Positions 10,023 to 18,023 of a stretch of DNA of 64,000 nt are shown one piece after another. The position numbers and the translations under genes are program-made. Numbering within the stretch: position 1 is the stretch's first letter; every line of letters starts with the position of its first letter. Below the pieces are notes generated by a model, which saw nothing but the letters and a program-made list of their open reading frames with translations, had not been told where the DNA came from and ran no database searches. Source of the stretch: a virus (Duplodnaviria > Heunggongvirae > Uroviricota > Caudoviricetes); IMG/VR virus record IMGVR_UViG_2799113015_000003, positions 1-64,000 of that record; one strand, 5' to 3'.

Positions 10023-10333
10023 ACCAACCCCAATGCCTTCATCTCGGCGTGCGCCTCTACCACCTCACGGTCGAACCGGTCGCGGGTGTACTCGCCGCCA
10101 AGGTGGGCGATGGTGTCCTCGACCATCCGAATCCACCATTCGGCCACGCCATCAAGGCCACCCATCGTGGCGGTTTCGCCCACAAGGATGAACCACGGGT
10201 GCGCGTTGGCTTCCAGGCACTCATCGCCATACGCCATAGAGATAGGTACACCAGGCACCGAACACACTCCGAGTGCGGGCTCCTTCCCGCAGACATCACA
10301 AATCAGTTCTGGCAGTGCAGGCTTCTCACTCAT
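10019..10333 (-). CDS. hypothetical Cys-containing protein, ~104 aa
   Basis: Start set at an internal ATG giving an ATGA overlap with the stop of the Pth2 gene. Confidence 0.4.
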   Translation of the reverse strand: MSEKPALPELICDVCGKEPALGVCSVPGVPISMAYGDECLEANAHPWFILVGETATMGGLDGVAEWWIRMVEDTIAHLGGEYTRDRFDREVVEAHAEMKALGLV

Positions 10334-10683
10334 AGCAGTTTCAGCTCCCCTGTAATCGGCGCGAGTTCGTCGGCGGTCGCTGGACCAATGGCACAACAGG
10401 TAGTTGTGAGCACGCCGTGGAACTCAGTCAATCCGTTGTCAGTAATCAATGAATTCGGGATTCCGGCCTTAATTGCCTTATCCCACAGCTCAATCAGCGC
10501 ATCCTCACTCTCGACACGCACACATACCTTGGTGAAACTCCCCTGCAGCCACTCTTCAACGCGCGGATCCGAGAGGTATTCGAGCGTCGCAGCCAGCGAT
10601 GCATGCGCGCCCTGTGCGACCATCTTGCCTGCACGCATACCAAGGTCTTTACGCATGACGATCATTTGCTTCAGCTCACTCAT
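10330..10683 (-). CDS. pth2: peptidyl-tRNA hydrolase, PTH2 family
   Basis: IVMRKDLGMRAGKMVAQGAHASLAA matches the conserved PTH2 core (e.g. human PTRH2 [21 protein letters not shown]). Confidence 0.7.
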   Translation of the reverse strand: MSELKQMIVMRKDLGMRAGKMVAQGAHASLAATLEYLSDPRVEEWLQGSFTKVCVRVESEDALIELWDKAIKAGIPNSLITDNGLTEFHGVLTTTCCAIGPATADELAPITGELKLL

Positions 10684-10756
10684 CGCCGTTCACCTCCCCC
10701 ATGATCTGAGCGCCGTCGTACACGGTCACCGGGTCGTAGTCGCATGCCGAATCGCG

Positions 10757-10767
10757 GTATCCCTTCC
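10757..10767 (-). promoter_or_regulatory. start-associated motif core on the minus strand (GGAAGGGATAC) upstream of the Pth2 gene
   Basis: Reverse complement GTATCCCTTCC on the top strand; followed on the minus strand by a 21-codon mini-ORF that ends at the Pth2 ATG. Confidence 0.35.
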
Positions 10768-10812
10768 CTGGGATTACCGGGTACTTCTCGAACCAGAACC
10801 CCTCACCGGGCA

Positions 10813-12051
10813 CTAGGTTCCCTTCACATTCAGCACCTGGCGAAGCTCCGTGACAACCTCAACCAGAGGGGCGGCGTCACTCATCACGACGTCGATTGGC
10901 TTGTAGCAGGAAGGGATCTCGTCAATCCATTCCTCGCCGTGGCGGTACTCGATGCCTTGCATCTGGTCGGCCAGGTCTTCAAGGGTGAAGAGTTCCTTCG
11001 CCTTGGTGCGAGAGAATCGCCTCCCGGCACCGTGCGGTGCAGAGAACAGGCCATCCTTGTTGCCCCGACCCCGGACCACATAGGAGCGTGTCCCCATCGA
11101 GCCGGGGATAAGTCCCAGCTTCCCCTCTGACGCATCGATAGCGCCCTTCCGGGTCAGCCATACCTTCCGCCCATCGATCTCAGTCTCAACCGTGTAGTTG
11201 TGGTGACAGTTCACGCGGTCGATCTCGACGCGCTGCGCCTGCACTCCAAGCCAATTCGCGAACACCTGGACGTAGCGGTCCATCATCTCGGCACGGTTCT
11301 CGTAGGCGAACTTTTGTGCCCACTGCAGATCCTTGATGTAGCGATCGAACTCAGCGGTCCCCTCAGTGAGGTAAGCAAGATCCCGATTCGGCAAACGAAA
11401 TTGAGGAGCGGCCTCGCCTGAGCACTTCTGTAGGTACTCATAGCGCGCAACGGCTACCTTAATGTGGCGCTGAGCGATCTTGTTGCCCACGCCCCTACTT
11501 CCCGAGTGCAGGAACAGCCACACAGTGTCTTCCAGGTCGACACACAGCTCGATGAAATGGTTACCGCCACCAAGTGAGCCCAACTGCTCCATCCACTTCG
11601 GGGAGTGAGACAGGTCTACATCCAGCTCGTTCTGAAGCCGGATCAGGCCCTCAATCCGATTACGTGTGAACGGGAACCGCTTAATGTCCGAGTTATAGTT
11701 GCCTGGCGACAACGGGATTGCACCCTCGATGGCCACGCGCAAATCGGGCAGGCGGGGCATATCAGCCAACAGGGCGTCATCCATGATGTTGGCCCACTCG
11801 TAGCGGGTCTTCACCGCGATCATGCCGCAGCCGATGTCCACGCCAACAGCCGCAGGAATCACAGCCCCCACGGTGGGGATGACCGTTCCAACAGCTGAAC
11901 CCTTGCCACTGTGCGCATCAGGCATCAGCGCCATGTGCGGGTAGATGAACGGCAGCGAGGCCGTCTCCTTAGCCTGATCGATCGTCGTGTAGTCGATCTC
12001 TGAGGCGAACGAGATGATGTTGTCACCAATGCGCTGGCTCAATTCCTTCAT
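10813..12051 (-). CDS. rtcB: RtcB-family RNA ligase (3'-phosphate/5'-hydroxyl RNA ligase)
   Basis: MPDAHSGKGSAVGTV, GVDIGCGM, GGGNHFIEL and SAPHGAGR are hallmark RtcB active-site motifs. Confidence 0.9.
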   Translation of the reverse strand: MKELSQRIGDNIISFASEIDYTTIDQAKETASLPFIYPHMALMPDAHSGKGSAVGTVIPTVGAVIPAAVGVDIGCGMIAVKTRYEWANIMDDALLADMPRLPDLRVAIEGAIPLSPGNYNSDIKRFPFTRNRIEGLIRLQNELDVDLSHSPKWMEQLGSLGGGNHFIELCVDLEDTVWLFLHSGSRGVGNKIAQRHIKVAVARYEYLQKCSGEAAPQFRLPNRDLAYLTEGTAEFDRYIKDLQWAQKFAYENRAEMMDRYVQVFANWLGVQAQRVEIDRVNCHHNYTVETEIDGRKVWLTRKGAIDASEGKLGLIPGSMGTRSYVVRGRGNKDGLFSAPHGAGRRFSRTKAKELFTLEDLADQMQGIEYRHGEEWIDEIPSCYKPIDVVMSDAAPLVEVVTELRQVLNVKGT

Positions 12052-12127
12052 ATACCAATGCTATTGAGCGATTACGGGTTCATGTGGGTACGAAAAAGCC
12101 CCCAGCTTTCGCTGAGGGCTCTTCGAG

Positions 12128-12198
12128 TAGTCCATGCGGGAATCAAACCCGCACCAACACCTTGAGAGGGTGGTGTGCTCTCACTACACCAATGGACC
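12128..12198 (-). tRNA. tRNA-Glu (anticodon CTC)
   Basis: T-arm GCGGG/AATCAAA/CCCGC (reverse complement); 7-bp acceptor with G1-U72; anticodon loop CTCTCAA. Confidence 0.7.
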
Positions 12199-12204
12199 TT
12201 AGGG

Positions 12205-12543
12205 CTATTGCTCAACCCACTTGCCGGATTCACGAACCTCTGTCTTGAGGTTAACCGGCCACATATCACGCTCCACTTGGGCACGTTGTAGGTCTTCGCG
12301 GCCCACCTGACGTTTCACCCATAGCTGGAACTTTGGTGAGCTCGCCATGCGCCTGAACGCGGCCTGCTTGTTCTGCAGCTGGCTACGCTCCTCGCGCGAC
12401 TCACCCACCGCGCCAGAAGGCTCATGCGTAATCCGCACGCCCGTCTCGCGCTTGTTCTGGTTTTGACCGCCTTTGCCCCCAGATCGGAATGTGTCCACAC
12501 GACAATCCGAGAGGGTGACAGACAGTACCCGTTCTCTACTCAC
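12205..12543 (-). CDS. ArfB-like peptidyl-tRNA hydrolase (class I release-factor GGQ domain protein)
   Basis: FRSGGKGGQNQNKRETGVRITHEPSG matches the RF-1/ArfB GGQ catalytic loop (E. coli ArfB [22 protein letters not shown]); ~110 aa with a basic C-terminal tail, as in ArfB. Confidence 0.65.
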   Translation of the reverse strand: MSRERVLSVTLSDCRVDTFRSGGKGGQNQNKRETGVRITHEPSGAVGESREERSQLQNKQAAFRRMASSPKFQLWVKRQVGREDLQRAQVERDMWPVNLKTEVRESGKWVEQ

Positions 12544-12544
12544 G

Positions 12545-12618
12545 TCAAGTCGACCGGATTTGAACCGGCGTCCCCCGCCGTGACAGGGCGGTGCTTTAGA
12601 CCTCTAAGCTACGACTCG
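12545..12618 (-). tRNA. tRNA-Asp (anticodon GTC)
   Basis: Acceptor pairs 12546-52 with 12612-18; anticodon arm CCGCC/GTGACAG/GGCGG. Confidence 0.7.
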
Positions 12619-12675
12619 AAAGAACGTTTGCCCCCAGTGGTTTTCGAGGCCACCGGGGCAGGTACGAACAACCTG

Positions 12676-12750
12676 AGCCAACTTTCTGGGAATCAAACCC
12701 TGGAGCTGCTTGGCCAAAACTCCCGTGGAGACGGTGCGAATTGAACGCGA
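12676..12750 (-). tRNA. tRNA-like sequence, isotype undetermined
   Basis: T-arm-like CTGGG/AATCAAA/CCCTG at 12686-12702, but acceptor and anticodon stems could not be paired by hand. Confidence 0.3.
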
Positions 12751-12800
12751 CCACACCAATCTTGCAAGGATCGGTCGCCACCTTGGAACATGCGCCCCCA
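12726..12800 (-). tRNA. possible tRNA-Ala (anticodon TGC), poorly folding
   Basis: Anticodon arm CAATC/TTGCAAG/GATCG gives loop CTTGCAA; T-arm GTGCG/AATTGAA/CGCGA is imperfect and the acceptor was not resolved. Confidence 0.3.
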
Positions 12801-12869
12801 AGGCCCCCGTTTTGACAAGACTGGGTCTGAACTTGGACGGTTACCTCAACGGAGCCGACAACCCTGTAG

Positions 12870-12943
12870 GGCCTCATCGAGGTCTCGAACCCCGCGCCTC
12901 TTCGTTACTAAGGAAGTGCTCTAGCCGGATGAGCTAATGAGGC
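12870..12943 (-). tRNA. tRNA with anticodon AGT (Thr?)
   Basis: Perfect 7-bp acceptor 12871-77/12937-43, D-stem GCTC/GAGC and a good T-arm; anticodon loop TTAGTAA gives the unusual A34 anticodon AGU. Confidence 0.55.
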
Positions 12944-12992
12944 CTGTTGCATAGGCGTTTTGAACAGGTGCCCTTGCAAGTGGCCTGTGGCG

Positions 12993-13065
12993 TACCCAGT
13001 CGAGGAATCGAACCCCGCTTGGCTGGATGTAAGCCAGCTTTCGTCCCAGACTAACCAGGCATGAG
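12993..13065 (-). tRNA. possible tRNA-Val (anticodon TAC)
   Basis: T-arm CGAGG/AATCGAA/CCCCG and a perfect anticodon arm GCTGG/ATGTAAG/CCAGC; acceptor pairing not confirmed. Confidence 0.45.
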
Positions 13066-13140
13066 AACGAGTGACCAGATTCGAACTGGCACGACCTGTT
13101 TGGAAGACAGGGATGCTAAACCGTTAAACATCACACTCGC
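13066..13140 (-). tRNA. tRNA-Gly (anticodon TCC)
   Basis: Acceptor 13067-73/13134-40; anticodon arm CCTGT/TTGGAAG/ACAGG. Confidence 0.7.
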
Positions 13141-13144
13141 ATGG

Positions 13145-13212
13145 AGCGGCAGAGGTGACTCGAACACCCTTGCAGCGGCTTAGGAGGCCACGCACTTTCC
13201 GGAACTACCGCT
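13145..13212 (-). tRNA. possible tRNA-Arg (anticodon CCT), short or atypical D region
   Basis: T-arm AGGTG/ACTCGAA/CACCC; anticodon arm GCGGC/TTAGGAG/GCCAC; only ~68 nt between the acceptor halves. Confidence 0.4.
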
Positions 13213-13215
13213 TGG

Positions 13216-13287
13216 TAGGTTCGCACAGAATTGAACTGCGATTGCCGACGTATCAGGTCGGTGTCCTTACCATTGGACGACGAACCA
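13216..13287 (-). tRNA. tRNA-Ile (anticodon GAT)
   Basis: Acceptor 13217-23/13281-87 (6 of 7 pairs); anticodon arm CCGAC/GTATCAG/GTCGG. Confidence 0.65.
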
Positions 13288-13288
13288 G

Positions 13289-13360
13289 TGGGAGCACCAG
13301 GGGTCGAACCTGGGATTCATGGGTAAGAGCCAAGAGTTATAACCGCTTAACTATACTCCC
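13289..13360 (-). tRNA. tRNA-Lys (anticodon CTT)
   Basis: Perfect T-stem CCAGG/CCTGG; acceptor 13290-96/13354-60; anticodon loop CTCTTAC. Confidence 0.6.
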
Positions 13361-13361
13361 C

Positions 13362-13433
13362 TAGGGCGCAAGGGATTTGAACCCTCAACTCGTAGATTAA
13401 AAGTCTAGGGTGATGCCGTTTCACCAACGCCCA
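13362..13433 (-). tRNA. tRNA-Lys (anticodon TTT)
   Basis: T-arm AAGGG/ATTTGAA/CCCTC; anticodon loop CTTTTAA. Confidence 0.6.
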
Positions 13434-13434
13434 G

Positions 13435-13509
13435 TAGTCGGCGCGAGGATCGAACTCGCACACACCGAGGTTTGAGCTCGGCGGCTTTGCCAGGTTTGCC
13501 TAGCCGACC
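13435..13509 (-). tRNA. tRNA with anticodon CAA (Leu codon UUG) but class-I length
   Basis: Perfect T-stem GCGAG/CTCGC, acceptor 13436-42/13503-09, perfect anticodon stem CCGAG/CTCGG with loop CTCAAAC; only a 5-nt variable region (75 nt total). Confidence 0.55.
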
Positions 13510-13567
13510 ATGCTCAGCATTTAACCGACCCAAGGCGGTTGGCACCCGTGAGGGCTGTTTGAACCGG

Positions 13568-13641
13568 TACTCCAAGAGGGATTCGAACCCACAACCTCCA
13601 GGGTCTAAGCCTGTCGCCTCTGCCAGTTGGGCTATTGGAGC
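13568..13641 (-). tRNA. tRNA with anticodon TAG (Leu codon CUA) but class-I length
   Basis: Acceptor 13569-75/13635-41; anticodon loop CTTAGAC; 74 nt with a short variable region. Confidence 0.5.
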
Positions 13642-13698
13642 TTGGTGCCGATATTGCCGCGTCGGCTTTACGGTGACTCCTACTCACCGCGCGCGTCG

Positions 13699-13770
13699 AG
13701 ACGAAGGCCGGGATCGAACCGGCGTGGGTCAGGGTTGCAGCCTGCCAGCTAGCCACTCACTCACTTCGCC
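13699..13770 (-). tRNA. tRNA-Cys (anticodon GCA)
   Basis: Perfect T-stem GCCGG/CCGGC; acceptor 13700-06/13764-70; anticodon loop CTGCAAC. Confidence 0.65.
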
Positions 13771-13778
13771 TTAAGCCG

Positions 13779-13943
13779 CTATTCTGCGGCGGGTGCTGCC
13801 TTCTTCGCGGGTGCCTTCTTGGCTACCGGCTTCTCTTCCACTGCGTAGTGGAAGTCCTCAAGGGCATCCATACGATCAATCAGGTCGTTTACCGCCTTGA
13901 CGATGTCGATATGGGCGATGCCCGTGCGCAGCTTGTCAGTCAT
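13779..13943 (-). CDS. small lysine/alanine-rich protein, 54 aa
   Basis: ORF MTDKLRTGIAHIDIVKAVNDL...KKAPAKKAAPAAE directly downstream of the HNH gene (ATGACTGA junction); below the ORF-track size cutoff. Confidence 0.25.
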   Translation of the reverse strand: MTDKLRTGIAHIDIVKAVNDLIDRMDALEDFHYAVEEKPVAKKAPAKKAAPAAE

Positions 13944-14337
13944 TGGTCGCCTCTGCTAGTCGTTTTCTGTAGTCGCGCTTACGATTTCTTGCTGCTAACC
14001 GACAGAGGCCGCAGCGGCACCCCCATCGGTCATACATTGTGCTTGTCCCATGGCGGGTTGGCCGCGTGCCATGCGTGAGCGGCATTTGGGCTGTGGTCTT
14101 GTCGCGATGACACCTCTTACAGAGGGGTTGACACTTCCTCAGCTCTGCCTGGAGTCGCGGCTCGGCCCAACTCCATATTCGGTGAGATGATTTCTCCATC
14201 GGATCGATGTGGTCGATCTCGAGTTGCTCAGTCGCACCGCAACTCACACACTTTCTGCCCTCAAAGTACCTAGCACGCCTTGCGGCCTGCCGTAGTCGTT
14301 CGTATTCTCGTCGGCGGACAGGATCTTTGATTGGCAT
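13936..14337 (-). CDS. HNH endonuclease (paralog 1) embedded in the tRNA array
   Basis: CVSCGATEQLEIDHIDP...CKRCH...GCRCGLCR HNH/zinc-finger motifs; start set at internal ATG 14337 (AGGGG RBS) because the longer ORF would overlap tRNA-Arg. Confidence 0.7.
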   Translation of the reverse strand: MPIKDPVRRREYERLRQAARRARYFEGRKCVSCGATEQLEIDHIDPMEKSSHRIWSWAEPRLQAELRKCQPLCKRCHRDKTTAQMPLTHGTRPTRHGTSTMYDRWGCRCGLCRLAARNRKRDYRKRLAEATND

Positions 14338-14432
14338 GTAACCCCTGTTTATATTGGGGTGACCGGACGGTACTGACCCGTCATCCTCGCGGTCACATCG
14401 CGAGATTCTCAACCTTTGAACTACGGTCACAG

Positions 14433-14507
14433 ACCCGTTGGCAGGATTCGAACCTGCATGCGTTGCGCCTTCGTAGGGCGGTGGGCGCTCCATTGCCCAA
14501 CAACGAG
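14433..14507 (-). tRNA. tRNA-Arg (anticodon ACG)
   Basis: Perfect T-stem GCAGG/CCTGC; acceptor 14434-40/14501-07; anticodon loop CTACGAA with A34, as expected for bacterial Arg-ACG. Confidence 0.7.
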
Positions 14508-14517
14508 AGCAGGCGGT

Positions 14518-14536
14518 TTAACGTGGAGTGCCCAGC
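14518..14536. repeat. 19-nt repeat TTAACGTGGAGTGCCCAGC (copy 1)
   Basis: Identical apart from one base to 14788-14806; lies 11 nt beyond the 5' end of tRNA-Arg on the tRNA strand. Confidence 0.5.
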
Positions 14537-14645
14537 ACGGAGCAGTTTTTCGTGATGTCTCAACACGGATGGTTCTTCCAGTTGTGAACCAACAACATTC
14601 ATGAGCCAGTTTCTACCCCAGCCGTGTACTGGCAACCCTCGTCCG

Positions 14646-14720
14646 TGGCGGGTACCGGATTTGAACCGGTGGTCTCAAGGTTATGAGCCTTGCGAGATGG
14701 CCGAGCTTCTCTAACCCGCT
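14646..14720 (-). tRNA. tRNA-Met (anticodon CAT)
   Basis: Perfect T-stem ACCGG/CCGGT and anticodon stem CAAGG/CCTTG with loop CTCATAA; 1-72 position is an A-C mismatch. Confidence 0.65.
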
Positions 14721-14787
14721 AAGTATGAGTGACTCATTCCGGCAGGACAGTTCGTCGCCTGCCGTATCCGCGCGAGTCAACGCGGCC

Positions 14788-14806
14788 TTTTACGTGGAGT
14801 GCCCAG
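14788..14806. repeat. 19-nt repeat TTTACGTGGAGTGCCCAGC (copy 2)
   Basis: Second copy, 68 nt beyond the 5' end of tRNA-Met. Confidence 0.5.
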
Positions 14807-14846
14807 CTTTTCACCAGTAGCTGTGGAACCTGGTTTCCCTTACACG

Positions 14847-14920
14847 CCGACTCTCCCCGAATCGAACGGGGGCGCACCGGGCTTCAACCGGTCGCTCTTA
14901 CCTAACTGAGCTAAGAGTCG
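14847..14920 (-). tRNA. tRNA-Phe (anticodon GAA)
   Basis: Perfect T-stem CCCCG/CGGGG, perfect acceptor 14848-54/14914-20 and anticodon stem ACCGG/CCGGT with loop TTGAAGC. Confidence 0.7.
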
Positions 14921-15214
14921 ATTGTTAGAGGCTGAGAGTACACCCGCTATCGAGAACCTTTCGCAGCATTATGGATTCGCTGCTTCTCCAGGCCATCCCT
15001 GACCTAGTTCTCACGCCTGGTCCGTTACCGTGAACCACTCGTTATGCCGAAAGCTACTCTGCGGCTTTCCCTTCGCGATGAGATGGCCGTCTCACTGCTG
15101 CAGTACTTGCCTACAAACCGCACTCACCTTGCGGGACTATTGTGCGGCCCAGATTCCCGAGGGTCTGGGATTAAGGCGCTTTTGCTCCTCGGCAGGGGAA
15201 GGACTTTTGCTTTT

Positions 15215-15290
15215 TATTGACGACGGGACTTGAACCCGCACATCCAGTTTCCAATAACTGGTGACCTACCGTTGGTCTACGCCATTCTCG
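15215..15290 (-). other. degenerate tRNA-like element
   Basis: Good T-arm ACGGG/ACTTGAA/CCCGC and an anticodon-like hairpin CCAGT/TTCCAATA/ACTGG with an 8-nt loop; no matching acceptor stem found. Confidence 0.25.
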
Positions 15291-15740
15291 CAGCGGAGAA
15301 TGATTTGACTAGAGACGTGCTTCCCCATGAAGTTCCGCACCCTTTTGGGGCACAGAATGCTTCACGCCTCTCGTGCTTTCGCCTGGCGGGGCTAATTACA
15401 CTCTCTCTCAACCGCATTGCGAGCCGTCGCCCGACGCGAGATCGATCATGGAACACGCCCTTGCTTGCGAGGCTCGGACTCAGTTCCTTCCGTTCCACAG
15501 GGCGCTTGTTCGATAGCCTTTTCACACGCACGTACGTGATGGTGTCCTCAGCACTTTGCCGTTGGACGGGGCGTAACTCGCAACCTGGCAGCCATCACTG
15601 ACTGCTCAAGGATTGGATTGCATGGATTGCCCTTGCGGGTGGTGGGTTGTCACCCCACCTTTCACCACCTTGCGGTGGCTTATGGGCCATGCCCCGAATG
15701 TCTTAACTATATCTCCCACAACAGAGTTCGTGTGGGTGAG

Positions 15741-15822
15741 CGGAGAGGCAGGTATTCGAAACCTACTGCGAACAGCGCTCCGGTTAGCAACCGGGCCTAG
15801 TCACCTAACTAGTTGCGCTCTC
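15741..15822 (-). tRNA. tRNA-Ser (anticodon GCT), class II
   Basis: T-arm CAGGT/ATTCGAA/ACCTA; anticodon loop TTGCTAA; ~13-nt variable arm; 82 nt. Confidence 0.55.
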
Positions 15823-15903
15823 CAAAATCCACCCCTTCGGCGTCGACACTGGACTCGACGCACCTGTATTCACTCTTAGCCATGGCCAGGCGGGTGGAGA
15901 ACG

Positions 15904-15988
15904 AGGAAGGTAGAGGAATCGAACCCCCGAGTTTTCAGGCTCGCCCCGGTATTCGACGCCGGTTGCCGACCATTCAGCGGTGCCTTCC
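15904..15988 (-). tRNA. tRNA-Ser (anticodon CGA), class II
   Basis: T-arm AGAGG/AATCGAA/CCCCC with G-U pairs; long variable arm; anticodon loop GTCGAAT; 85 nt. Confidence 0.5.
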
Positions 15989-16068
15989 ATATGCCCCATT
16001 TTGATAACGCAACTGGAGCGGCTGCGGGCAGTCAACTCATGGCAGGTACCTACCGGTTGACTCAAAAG

Positions 16069-16140
16069 CTGAAGACCCTGGATTCGAACCAAGAACTGCG
16101 ACGTTCAGAGCGTCGTGTGTTGCCGTTACACCAATCTTCA
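16069..16140 (-). tRNA. tRNA-Gln (anticodon CTG)
   Basis: Acceptor 16070-76/16134-40; anticodon arm CGACG/TTCAGAG/CGTCG. Confidence 0.7.
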
Positions 16141-16217
16141 AGGGCGATTTGACCGTATGCATCCGATCGGGAGCCGCAACCCAGCAGATCATTTGCCCCG
16201 GCCTGCCAGCGGAGTCG

Positions 16218-16299
16218 TACGGACTGATGGATTCGAACCACCACACTCGAAAGCTCTGATTTACAGTCAGAGATCCCTCGCCAATAGGAGAGAGTCCGC
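16218..16299 (-). tRNA. tRNA-Tyr (anticodon GTA), class II
   Basis: Acceptor 16219-25/16293-99; anticodon arm TCTGA/TTTACAG/TCAGA; 11-nt variable arm; 82 nt. Confidence 0.7.
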
Positions 16300-16302
16300 A
16301 TT

Positions 16303-16680
16303 TCACGATGCACGTTGTCGGCGCTTCGCGTTTCGGGCCCACAGGCGACACAGCCCGCATCGGCAGCCGTGTCGTTGGTACATTCTGCACGTGCCATGTC
16401 GGTAGGACTTGAAACCGATGGTGATCTCGGTTTGCGCGATAGTCTTCGCCTTGTGGCAGGCACGACACAGGGCTTGACACTTATCCAATTCTGCAATGCG
16501 TCTGCCTGCCGACCAGGACCAAATCGCGTTCGTAACCTTCACTGTTGGATCAATGTGATCCAGTTCAAGGTCACCCCCTGAACCGCAAGAGGCACATACC
16601 CTTCCGGCGAACCACTCGTCACGTCGACCTGCTCGCCACTCTCGTTGGTACCGGCGCTTCACTTCACCTGTAAGTGTCAT
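16303..16680 (-). CDS. HNH endonuclease (paralog 2) embedded in the tRNA array
   Basis: CASCGSGGDLELDHIDP...CRACH...YRHGTCRMYQRHGCRCGLCR aligns with the 13936..14337 product; the ORF is flanked tightly by tRNA-Tyr and tRNA-Asn. Confidence 0.75.
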   Translation of the reverse strand: MTLTGEVKRRYQREWRAGRRDEWFAGRVCASCGSGGDLELDHIDPTVKVTNAIWSWSAGRRIAELDKCQALCRACHKAKTIAQTEITIGFKSYRHGTCRMYQRHGCRCGLCRLWARNAKRRQRAS

Positions 16681-16684
16681 AACG

Positions 16685-16758
16685 CTGGCTTGGCAGGATT
16701 CGAACCTACACCTCGCGAGTTAACAGCTCGCTGCTCTACCAATTGAGCTACAGGCCAA
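16685..16758 (-). tRNA. tRNA-Asn (anticodon GTT)
   Basis: T-arm GCAGG/ATTCGAA/CCTAC; anticodon arm GCGAG/TTAACAG/CTCGC. Confidence 0.65.
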
Positions 16759-16876
16759 GAGCGAGGGTGGCCAGTGTCAGCGCGCTTTCTGACCTGTGCG
16801 ACCCTCTTGCCCGTCCTGCTTAGAGATGAGACGGAGCCGAAAACACCCGTACGGTCATCATACGTGATGACCAACG

Positions 16877-16951
16877 TCTGCCAGGCGCGATTTGAACACG
16901 CGATCTCCTGGACCCAAACCAGGCGGGATGGCCAAACTTCCCTACAAGCAG
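16877..16951 (-). tRNA. tRNA-Pro (anticodon TGG)
   Basis: T-arm GCGCG/ATTTGAA/CACGC; perfect anticodon stem CCTGG/CCAGG with loop TTTGGGT (G37); perfect D-stem GGGA/TCCC. Confidence 0.6.
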
Positions 16952-17194
16952 ATGATGGACGACACGGCCCAGGTACGGCACCTCAGGTCAGATCCTTTTT
17001 ATCGGAACCTACTGCGGGATTACCCTGCCATCCATATGGCCACCGGCATCCCGATGGCCGCGCGGAGATGTCTCTCCACATTCCCCGTACGACCGACGCT
17101 TTCCTGGAGCTACCTGTACTTGCGCATGTGGTCTGACAGCCGGGGCCACACTGACTAACGAGGATGTTCTCCCTTTGCACTACCGGCAGCCTAC

Positions 17195-17260
17195 GCCGCC
17201 AGTCGGGGCTCGAACCCGAATCTTCCTCTCGTGGAGCTGCCCGGAATTGAACCGGGATGT
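17195..17260 (-). other. two adjacent perfect T-arm-like hairpins (tRNA-like fragment or structured ncRNA)
   Basis: TCGGG/GCTCGAA/CCCGA at 17203-19 and CCCGG/AATTGAA/CCGGG at 17240-56, with no resolvable acceptor or anticodon arms. Confidence 0.2.
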
Positions 17261-17642
17261 TACGTGACTTGTCACAGTCTTCTACGTGCGTAGTCCACCG
17301 ATTGGGTCGGTTGGGGTGGACGCCTGTCCGAATCGAGACCTCAGACTCTCGACCGATCTTCCAGCACAGTTTGTCGCCTGAGAGCTGGTCATTGCGAGTT
17401 CCCCGTATTCGCGACGGTGAATTGGTACACGGAACGGGTAAACCGTTGTACCCCACCGGACTACGCAGCTAGGGCGTAGTCGGACTGAGCAGAAGCTGCA
17501 GTTATTGTGGTTGCACTGTTACGGGCGTTGCGGACCCGGCACGCTTCTCAGTAAGTTGACACGCAATCGAATACCTGTCAGCCCCATTGAAGTATCTATA
17601 TCTCTATGGAGTTTTCAAATGTCATGCCACACAGAGGCATTG

Positions 17643-17713
17643 CACGGGCGGAGAGAATCGAACTCCCACTAACGGGTTTGGAATCCGTTGTCCTGCCTTT
17701 GGACCACGCCCAT
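17643..17713 (-). tRNA. tRNA-Trp (anticodon CCA)
   Basis: T-arm GAGAG/AATCGAA/CTCCC; acceptor 17644-50/17707-13; anticodon loop TTCCAAA. Confidence 0.65.
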
Positions 17714-17843
17714 ATCACCGGAATTTCCGGCTCCGGTAACCGGTGTGAACTAAGTCTACGACCCACCCACATGAACCTCTAGCGAATAAAAACGGGCCCC
17801 GATCCACTGAGGAACCGGGGCCCAACGCCGAGAAAGCCTGCGC

Positions 17844-18023
17844 TTACTGCTTGGTTGGGAAGGCTCCGTCATCAGCCGGAATGGTGCCGTTCCACCATCC
17901 ATGGGCCTTCGCCTGGGACCACTTGTCGCGGTCAGCCGACCCATAAATGGCCTCGACTACCTGCGAGCGGAACAGGTCAGCCTGTGGGGTTCCCGCTACG
18001 GGCTTGTTGTTCTGATTCGCCAT
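17844..18023 (-). CDS. small hypothetical protein, 59 aa
   Basis: ORF MANQNNKPVAGTPQADLFRSQVVEAIYGSADRDKW... between the last tRNA and the HNH gene; below the ORF-track size cutoff. Confidence 0.25.
   Translation of the reverse strand: MANQNNKPVAGTPQADLFRSQVVEAIYGSADRDKWSQAKAHGWWNGTIPADDGAFPTKQ

Follow-up and report, generated by a model that had tools for sequence, protein, structure and literature searches.

Can a tRNA with a leucine anticodon and without the long variable arm of bacterial tRNALeu be an ordinary leucine tRNA, and which synthetase would charge it? This question is raised by two neighbouring tRNA genes in a 64,000-nt stretch of DNA of a tailed virus (Caudoviricetes; IMG/VR record IMGVR_UViG_2799113015_000003, positions 1 to 64,000), hereafter the window, which lies entirely within a prophage; the region shares 96.6% identity with Mycobacterium phage prophi86-1, which resides in M. 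abscessus as a prophage, and 88.9-90.3% with prophiGD54-2 and prophiT49-2. According to a 2023 review, tRNALeu is long-armed everywhere save in animal mitochondria (Giege & Eriani, PMC9976931). A first-pass annotation of this DNA had assigned the two tRNAs a class-I architecture and had asked whether leucyl-tRNA synthetase (LeuRS) charges them in an atypical way, or whether they are recoding or mis-sense tRNAs. Judging from their sequence, we consider that both genes most likely encode working leucine tRNAs carried by a phage, in which the long arm is gone but all else that bacterial LeuRS reads is kept, and that they belong to a large natural exception to the long-arm rule, found in phages that infect Actinobacteria, Proteobacteria and further hosts.

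The genes were called with ARAGORN and with Infernal using the Rfam tRNA model (RF00005, gathering score 29 bits), and are referred to below as the CAA gene and the UAG gene (annotated tag) of the M. abscessus prophage window.

13435-13509 (-), tRNA-Leu(CAA), 75 nt to the discriminator A73 (13435); Infernal/Rfam 51.8 bits, ARAGORN
13472-13474 (-), anticodon CAA, reading UUG, in the loop CUCAAAC with A37; ARAGORN (gene positions 36-38), Infernal alignment
13510-13567 (-), 58-nt spacer between the CAA and UAG genes, free of Rfam and ARAGORN features; sequence
13568-13641 (-), tRNA-Leu(UAG), 74 nt to the discriminator A73 (13568); Infernal/Rfam 54.3 bits, ARAGORN
13605-13607 (-), anticodon UAG, reading CUA/CUG and possibly more CUN codons, in the loop CUUAGAC with A37; ARAGORN

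Both genes match the full Rfam model (positions 1-71) above the gathering score, with E-values, for a search of the entire window, of 3e-8 (CAA gene) and 7e-9 (UAG gene). The boundaries given by ARAGORN are slightly wider, namely 13434-13509(-) for tRNA-Leu(caa) and 13566-13641(-) for tRNA-Leu(tag). Each anticodon is of a leucine type (NAG or YAA) and lies in a 7-nt loop after U33; CCA is not encoded in the CAA gene, and CC directly follows A73 in the UAG gene. The two genes have the orientation of all remaining members of their array, 19 tRNAs and a tmRNA, and on the plus strand over them the Rfam scan returned a single sub-threshold match (Plastid-ycf2, at 27 bits, where the gathering score is 65.7). 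A reading on the opposite strand, with the anticodons UUG (Gln) and CUA (amber suppressor), was rejected, since no plus-strand sequence reaches the tRNA score. The coordinates, anticodons, lengths, short variable region and hand fold of the first-pass annotation were all correct, and the ARAGORN run that it had proposed gave the leucine anticodons CAA and TAG within boundaries that agree with those of Infernal. It is confirmed, then, that both are real tRNA genes with leucine anticodons and without a long variable arm.

The genes themselves are not new: the related prophage records already annotate them as tRNA-Leu(caa) and tRNA-Leu(tag), 76 nt each. The CAA gene is 100% identical to the tRNA-Leu(caa) of prophi86-1 and 98.7% to that of prophiGD54-2, and the UAG gene is 100% identical in prophi86-1 and prophiT49-2 and 90.8% in prophiGD54-2. 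The short loop has been remarked upon once, in a single sentence where a mycobacterial tRNALeu(TAG) encoded in a cluster is said to have "a short variable loop" (Behra et al., 2019; PMC6582537); beyond that passing sentence, we found in the literature no description of the short-arm family, its retained identity set, its change of core or its breadth.

Whether such tRNAs can be read by LeuRS depends on their variable loops and D arms, which are as follows.

13460-13464 (-), variable loop of the CAA tRNA, 5 nt (UGUGU), ending in U48, the Levitt partner of A15; Infernal, ARAGORN
13483-13500 (-), D arm of the CAA tRNA, 3-bp stem GGC/GCC, A13.A22 and a 12-nt loop AAACCUGGCAAA (A14, A15, G18G19); ARAGORN structure
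13593-13597 (-), variable loop of the UAG tRNA, 5 nt (AGGUU), ending in U48; Infernal, ARAGORN
13616-13632 (-), D arm of the UAG tRNA, 3-bp stem GCC/GGC, C13.A22 and an 11-nt loop CAACUGGCAGA, with U8 A9 before it; Infernal, ARAGORN

The variable loops, 5 nt in both tRNAs, fall within the 4-5 nt of class I, and the covariance-model alignment deletes the long arm of class II. The D arms, instead, do not have the 4-bp stem and 7-10 nt loop of class I, the 4-bp stem being present in 71% of other viral tRNAs, but 3 bp and loops of 11 and 12 nt. The two D loops share the pattern AAC(C)UGGCARA, the D arm of the UAG tRNA is built like the cellular tRNALeu consensus GAAUUGGUAGA, and the D-arm consensus of cellular class-II tRNALeu in our sample is G-AAUUGGUAGA on a 3-bp stem. 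The description as "class-I architecture" is therefore half right: it holds for the variable loop and fails for the D arm, which is of the class-II Leu type.

Furthermore, the Leu core is complete in both genes, with U8:A14, A15:U48, the G18G19 register, A20a and the T-loop partners U54, U55, C56 and A58; both have the T loop UUCGA, the discriminator A73 (13435, 13568) and a G1.U72 pair. The identity set laid out for E. coli LeuRS consists of A73, the A15:U48 Levitt pair, G18G19, A20a, U8:A14 and the D/T-loop tertiary pairs (Giege & Eriani, PMC9976931), and the two tRNAs match it item by item. Leucylation in E. coli depends on neither the sequence nor the folding of the long arm, an arm-less minimal tRNALeu being active if A73 and the D/T-loop contacts are kept, and human mitochondrial tRNALeu is leucylated without the arm (PMC9976931). 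With the identity set retained and the arm dispensable for E. coli LeuRS, no "atypical" charging has to be invoked. The identity of other isotypes is absent: both genes have A73 and not G73, U3-A70 and not G3.U70, and no long arm, and so lack the marks of Ser and Ala identity, and with sense anticodons in standard 7-nt loops neither has the features of a suppressor or recoding tRNA.

In the reading that we favour, the two tRNAs would be transcribed together with the rest of the minus-strand array and processed, with host enzymes adding or completing the CCA end. Host LeuRS would then charge them with leucine through A73 and the Leu-specific elbow and core (the 3-bp D stem, the 11-12 nt D loop with A14, A15:U48, the Leu register of G18G19, A20a and the T loop UUCGA), and UUG (by the CAA tRNA) and CUA/CUG (by the UAG tRNA) would be decoded as leucine during prophage or lytic expression.

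The leucine isotype was examined with a signature composed of U8, A14, A15, U48, A73, a 3-bp D stem and a D loop of 10-12 nt, scored in the 2357 tRNAs that ARAGORN calls in 365 loci. Among Leu tRNAs not chosen by their D-loop motif, the signature occurs in 42 of the 64 short and 41 of the 66 long forms (about 64%); it occurs in 84-90% of motif-selected Leu tRNAs and in 18 of 1723 non-Leu tRNAs (1%). Within the window, two of the 21 tRNAs carry it, namely the products of the CAA and UAG genes. A covariance model of class-II Leu, built from 70 cellular long-arm tRNALeu, was also scored at every position from 11900 to 17900 with the filters off: despite the deletion of the arm, the UAG gene ranks first in the array (48.3 bits) and the CAA gene second (43.5 bits), followed by tRNA-Asn (35.3 bits) and the class-II tRNA-Tyr (30.1 bits), although the training genes were gathered by their D-loop motif, so that the model is biased towards D loops of the Leu type, and a few bits come from the conserved A35. 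The same scan gave a 22.3-bit full-length match at 13145-13211(-), in the spacer between tRNA-Gly and tRNA-Ile, where neither ARAGORN nor Rfam makes a call; this may be a decayed tRNA.

Independent indications come from homologues in other phages. In phage Sf14, the isotype models of tRNAscan-SE score highest for Leu with tRNA-Leu(TAG) (67.4), tRNA-Leu(CAA) (49.1) and tRNA-Leu(TAA) (60.2) (PMC12482277, Table 2); these tRNAs, 77, 78 and 79 nt long, respectively, are homologous to the short Leu tRNAs of the window, and their missing arm goes unmentioned in that paper. A homologue in phage Knocker (MZ150786.2; L003:1501-1575) is labelled "tRNA-Gln(caa)"; it is a tRNA-Leu(caa) of the short kind that shares 84.5% identity with the CAA gene of the window, and ARAGORN calls it Leu(caa); the label is most simply a codon/anticodon mix-up, because CAA is a Gln codon. 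When the UAG gene was compared by BLAST with 5,426 E. coli genomes to find the nearest cellular isotype, just two meaningless 30-nt matches resulted.

How widespread are these short forms? The UAG gene finds matches in 410 phage records by BLAST, in 351 of which at least 80% of the query is covered at a single place. Among the matches listed, several were unannotated, and the annotated features were all tRNA-Leu except one tRNA-Arg (Pseudomonas phage Milchi). These phages infect, among others, Escherichia, Salmonella and Shigella (Felixounavirus, Mooglevirus), Erwinia, Streptomyces, Gordonia, Rhodococcus, Myxococcus and Mycobacterium. For the CAA gene, 31 mycobacteriophage records contain homologues, and homologues are kept in several mycobacteriophage lineages, e.g., Rey, Wildcat and Bonray. 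The members are 77-100% identical to phage tRNA-Leu over 74-76 nt and share an unusual core, with A9, C12-G23 and C or A at position 13; in the window this is A9, C12-G23 and C13.A22 in the UAG gene, and A9, C12-G23 and A13.A22 in the CAA gene. In an alignment of 78 diverse homologues, 98.5% of the cells pair and double changes occur at all 20 pairs, against 35-45% of the cells when the pairing is slid, and none of 500 shuffles reaches the observed value. To judge from this covariation, the cloverleaf is not a chance fold and is evidently under selection for function.

The loss of the arm is peculiar to leucine. Three short Leu tRNAs (tag, caa, taa) occur in phage wV8 together with long-arm Ser tRNAs of 90 and 93 nt and a Tyr tRNA of 88 nt. 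In 120 IMG/VR loci chosen for holding a short Leu, 189 Leu tRNAs are short against 30 long, and the long arm is present in 90 of 94 Ser and in 40 of 44 Tyr tRNAs. According to the published identity rules, SerRS measures the long arm and TyrRS contacts it, and bacterial LeuRS makes no use of it; this would explain why phage tRNA arrays, which are compact and evolve fast, dispense with the arm in Leu and retain it in Ser and Tyr. Such a pattern agrees with the prediction of the in vitro identity studies, and the family can serve as an experiment of nature on the elements of a tRNA that are truly required by a synthetase.

The short forms are enriched in viral DNA. One search pattern, accepting short and long forms alike, was applied to IMG/VR and GTDB: short forms account for 24 of 129 matches in viral contigs and for three of 121 in cellular genomes (Fisher p = 2e-5). 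The stricter statement that short Leu tRNAs occur in phage DNA only was rejected, the immediate neighbours of the three cellular cases not being obviously phage genes. These cases, all of the A9/C13 type, are in the Planctomycetota metagenome-assembled genome JBCCHQ010000007.1 (L332:3550-3794), a Herbiconiux sp. chromosome (L317:2732-2806) and Gordonia sp. (L275:491-566); one of the loci holds three in tandem (cag, taa, gag), and a subtilase, a glutamate-synthase-like protein and a histidine kinase are found as neighbours. As for the origin of the family, A9/C13 (59%) and C12-G23 are found in most short forms, against G9 (99%), R13 (99%) and G12 in cellular tRNALeu, and about 18% retain the class-II core. 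In an unbiased sample, the nearest neighbour of a short form is a long-arm tRNA in 14 of 39 cases and another short form in 25 of 39 (14% short expected), which suggests that the arm was probably lost more than once and that one old lineage has spread widely.

The likeness of the window tRNAs to known systems can be described at several levels. They share with bacterial class-II tRNALeu the CAA and UAG anticodons, A73, U8:A14, A15:U48, the 3-bp D stem with a 13:22 mismatch, an 11-nt D loop of the form N-AAYUGGYAR-A, the G18G19 register and the T loop UUCGA. They differ from it in the variable region (about 10-17 nt in the cellular sample against 5 nt), in the near-invariant G9, R13 and G12-C23 of the cellular forms, which are replaced by A9, C13 or A13 and C12-G23, and in having G1.U72 instead of G1-C72 and, in the UAG isoacceptor, A37 instead of G37. 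The animal mitochondrial tRNALeu (UUR, CUN) is likewise a natural arm-less leucine tRNA with A73 and A14 identity, served by a bacterial-type LeuRS (PMC9976931); in contrast to the phage tRNAs, it has a degenerate structure and a dedicated, co-evolved synthetase, whereas the phage tRNAs, with their canonical elbow, have to share the ordinary LeuRS of the host with the long-arm host tRNALeu. The engineered or selected (SELEX) minimal tRNALeu of E. coli, as summarized in PMC9976931 (Larkin 2002; Asahara 1998), are arm-less and leucylated given A73 and the D/T contacts; they are laboratory constructs assayed in vitro, whereas the window tRNAs are natural genes kept in many phage lineages.

Also close are the short tRNA-Leu of Felixounavirus and Mooglevirus (wV8, Sf14) and of Streptomyces and Gordonia phages, homologues with 77-84% identity over the full length that agree with the window tRNAs in the D arm, in A73 and often in G1.U72, and whose variable loop has 5-7 nt. 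Their hosts are different (Proteobacteria and other Actinobacteria), and in wV8 and Sf14 the CCA is encoded and an extra UAA isoacceptor is present. The mycobacterial and phage tRNA arrays described before (Morgado & Vicente 2018; Behra 2019; cluster M) resemble that of the window in having more than 20 tRNAs, a tmRNA and HNH endonucleases, and the papers on them contain no analysis of identity elements, of the spread beyond mycobacteria or of the contrast with Ser and Tyr. Two phage tRNAs considered as functional models were discarded: the tRNA-Leu(CAA) of Gaia, which genetically replaces the host gene, is an ordinary 83-nt class-II tRNA and gives no proof for the short Leu, and in T5, considered as an experimentally studied example, tRNALeu(UAG) is 85 nt long and also of class II.

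Several points weigh against the reading as ordinary leucine tRNAs, in addition to the D-loop bias of the covariance model. An nhmmer classifier with per-isotype profiles, in which the anticodon was masked and the variable region removed, left Leu tied with Gln/Asn and with Tyr, and assigned only about 12 of 19 control tRNAs correctly. The UAG tRNA contains the non-Watson-Crick pairs G1.U72, A27.G43 and U50.U64, and has A37 (position 37 is given at window 13601) where cellular tRNALeu(UAG) usually has G37, so that it is without the m1G37 (TrmD) site carried by cellular CUN-reading tRNALeu. Hu et al. (PMC3561953) have proposed that M. tuberculosis LeuRS reads A47h of the arm through Arg921, with a role in both aminoacylation and pre-transfer editing, and the affinity of Aquifex LeuRS is lower after deletion of the arm (PMC2377443); charging in the mycobacterial host could therefore be inefficient, and LeuRS may read the arm in mycobacteria. 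Moreover, no aminoacylation or expression data on the window genes or on any member of the short-arm family were found in the literature.

Other explanations must be weighed in the light of the surroundings of the two genes, in which the following features are found.

10330-10683 (-), PTH2 peptidyl-tRNA hydrolase; Pfam 8e-32
10813-12051 (-), RtcB RNA ligase; Pfam 5e-107
12127-17713 (-), tRNA array with 20 tRNAs, a tRNA-like unit in GOLLD, a tmRNA and HNH ORFs; ARAGORN, Rfam, Pfam
12205-12543 (-), RF-1-domain (ArfB-like) protein, 112 aa; Pfam 8e-19
13936-14493 and 16303-16680 (-), HNH endonuclease open reading frames (ORFs) inside the array
14929-15372 (-), GOLLD RNA, full length; Rfam RF02032, 198.7 bits
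15215-15286 (-), tRNA-like unit within GOLLD, with a 6-nt anticodon loop, called "tRNA-?(Gln|Pro)(tg)"; ARAGORN, Rfam tRNA 49.5 bits
17229-17585 (-), tmRNA with the tag peptide AASAQSDYALAA, between tRNA-Pro and tRNA-Trp at the end of the array; Rfam 80.5 bits

The stretch 10330-12543(-) thus holds PTH2, RtcB, a tRNA-Glu and the RF-1-domain protein, with the same annotations in prophi86-1, and the three protein genes form a translation repair/rescue set adjoining the array.

The explanation that survives best alongside ours, which we nevertheless hold to be rather unlikely, is that the short arm is adaptive: the phage tRNALeu would evade some host factor that reads cellular tRNALeu, be it a tRNA-targeting nuclease, a toxin or a modification enzyme, and would still be charged by LeuRS, and the array, RtcB, PTH2 and the ArfB-like protein would form an anti-defence and translation-rescue module. 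This would extend the reading as leucine tRNAs and does not exclude it. Given A37 and the adjoining RtcB, PTH2 and RF-1-domain genes, the idea of a role in defence is reasonable; moreover, mycobacterial tRNA arrays are discussed as a putative anti-defence system (PMC12803027), and mutations in the anticodon loops of phage tRNAs have been linked to resistance to anticodon nucleases (PMC12482277). The viral enrichment of the short forms described above goes in the same direction, as does A37, which is present in about half of the short viral tRNALeu(UAG), whereas G37 is found in 21 of 22 cellular ones (A37 type, one of 22); the remodelled core (A9/C13/C12-G23) of most short forms suggests a maintained lineage and not random decay. 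Against this, we know of no nuclease or toxin that reads the variable arm of tRNALeu, the restriction of the pattern to Leu is equally well explained by neutral loss under a deletion bias, the 14 of 39 short forms with a class-II nearest neighbour fit a repeated and easy loss, and T5 and Gaia have ordinary long-arm tRNALeu. In the most far-reaching form of this idea, likewise rather unlikely, arm loss, the A9/C13 core and A37 would together define selected "stealth" isoacceptors, charged by LeuRS and missed by nucleases, toxins or regulators specific for tRNALeu; in mycobacteria, their charging or editing may in addition be handled differently from that of the host tRNALeu.

We consider it improbable that mycobacterial LeuRS needs the arm, so that the two tRNAs would be poorly charged or uncharged, as relics of the array or as non-decoders (decoys or processing signals). 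The proposed Arg921-A47h contact and the mismatches of the UAG tRNA speak for this possibility, as do other members of the array that look degenerate (His, Val, Tyr and Pro, under the Rfam gathering score). Nevertheless, the genes are conserved in two or three other prophages (100% and 98.7-100%), and in the more distant orthologue of the UAG gene, that of prophiGD54-2, the differences restore pairs (A27.G43 becomes A-U and U50.U64 becomes G.U, the remaining differences being in loops). Homologues also persist in mycobacteriophage lineages such as Rey, Wildcat and Bonray, both genes are far above the tRNA threshold, and covariation is strong across the family.

Finally, it is very improbable that these are mis-sense or recoding tRNAs, charged by another synthetase or derived from another isotype by anticodon mutation and reading UUG and CUA otherwise, since their superficially class-I look without the arm, the Gln label in Knocker (most simply a mix-up, with ARAGORN calling Leu) and the failure of the nhmmer classifier to separate Leu from Gln, Asn and Tyr are outweighed by the absence of G3.U70 (Ala) and of G73 or a long arm (Ser), by anticodons that match no anticodon-reading synthetase and are sense, not stop-complementary, by the Leu core signature and the first and second ranks under the Leu covariance model, and by the Leu isotype scores of the Sf14 homologues.

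As leucine tRNAs with the role that we favour, the two molecules would serve codons that the prophage uses: CUA and UUG make up 10.9% and 13.0% of the Leu codons in the ORFs of the window, where the GC content at third codon positions (GC3) is 66%, and this usage of CUA would be above the expectation for a host of 64% GC. A role in codon supply is plausible, and is probably not the whole story, because RtcB, PTH2 and the RF-1-domain gene adjoin the array. The family also offers a direct test of the arm contact proposed for M. tuberculosis LeuRS, an antibiotic target, and a source of compact and possibly defence-resistant Leu tRNAs for engineering. In the annotation of phage genomes, a short tRNA-Leu should not be discarded as a pseudogene or relabelled, as in the case of Knocker.

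Some minor observations concern the rest of the array. The sole odd anticodon loop is that of the unit embedded in GOLLD (15215-15286), which is annotated as tRNA-Gln(ttg) in the record of prophi86-1 and as tRNA-OTHER in that of prophiGD54-2. Four ARAGORN calls on the minus strand are under the Rfam gathering score (12992-13060, Val; 14355-14430, His; 16217-16299, Tyr; 16876-16951, Pro), and some of them may be degenerate. The Val call is 69 nt long with a minimal D arm, and the His call, with a T loop lacking UUC, differs from the gene at the same place in prophi86-1. The 1:72 pair is non-Watson-Crick in many tRNAs of the array, being G.U in Glu, Val, Gly, both Leu and Tyr, U.U in Ile and Lys(ttt), and A.C in Met; in our samples, G1.U72 is found in 34% of short and 27% of long viral Leu tRNAs against 7% of cellular ones, and in 12% of viral against 2% of cellular non-Leu tRNAs.

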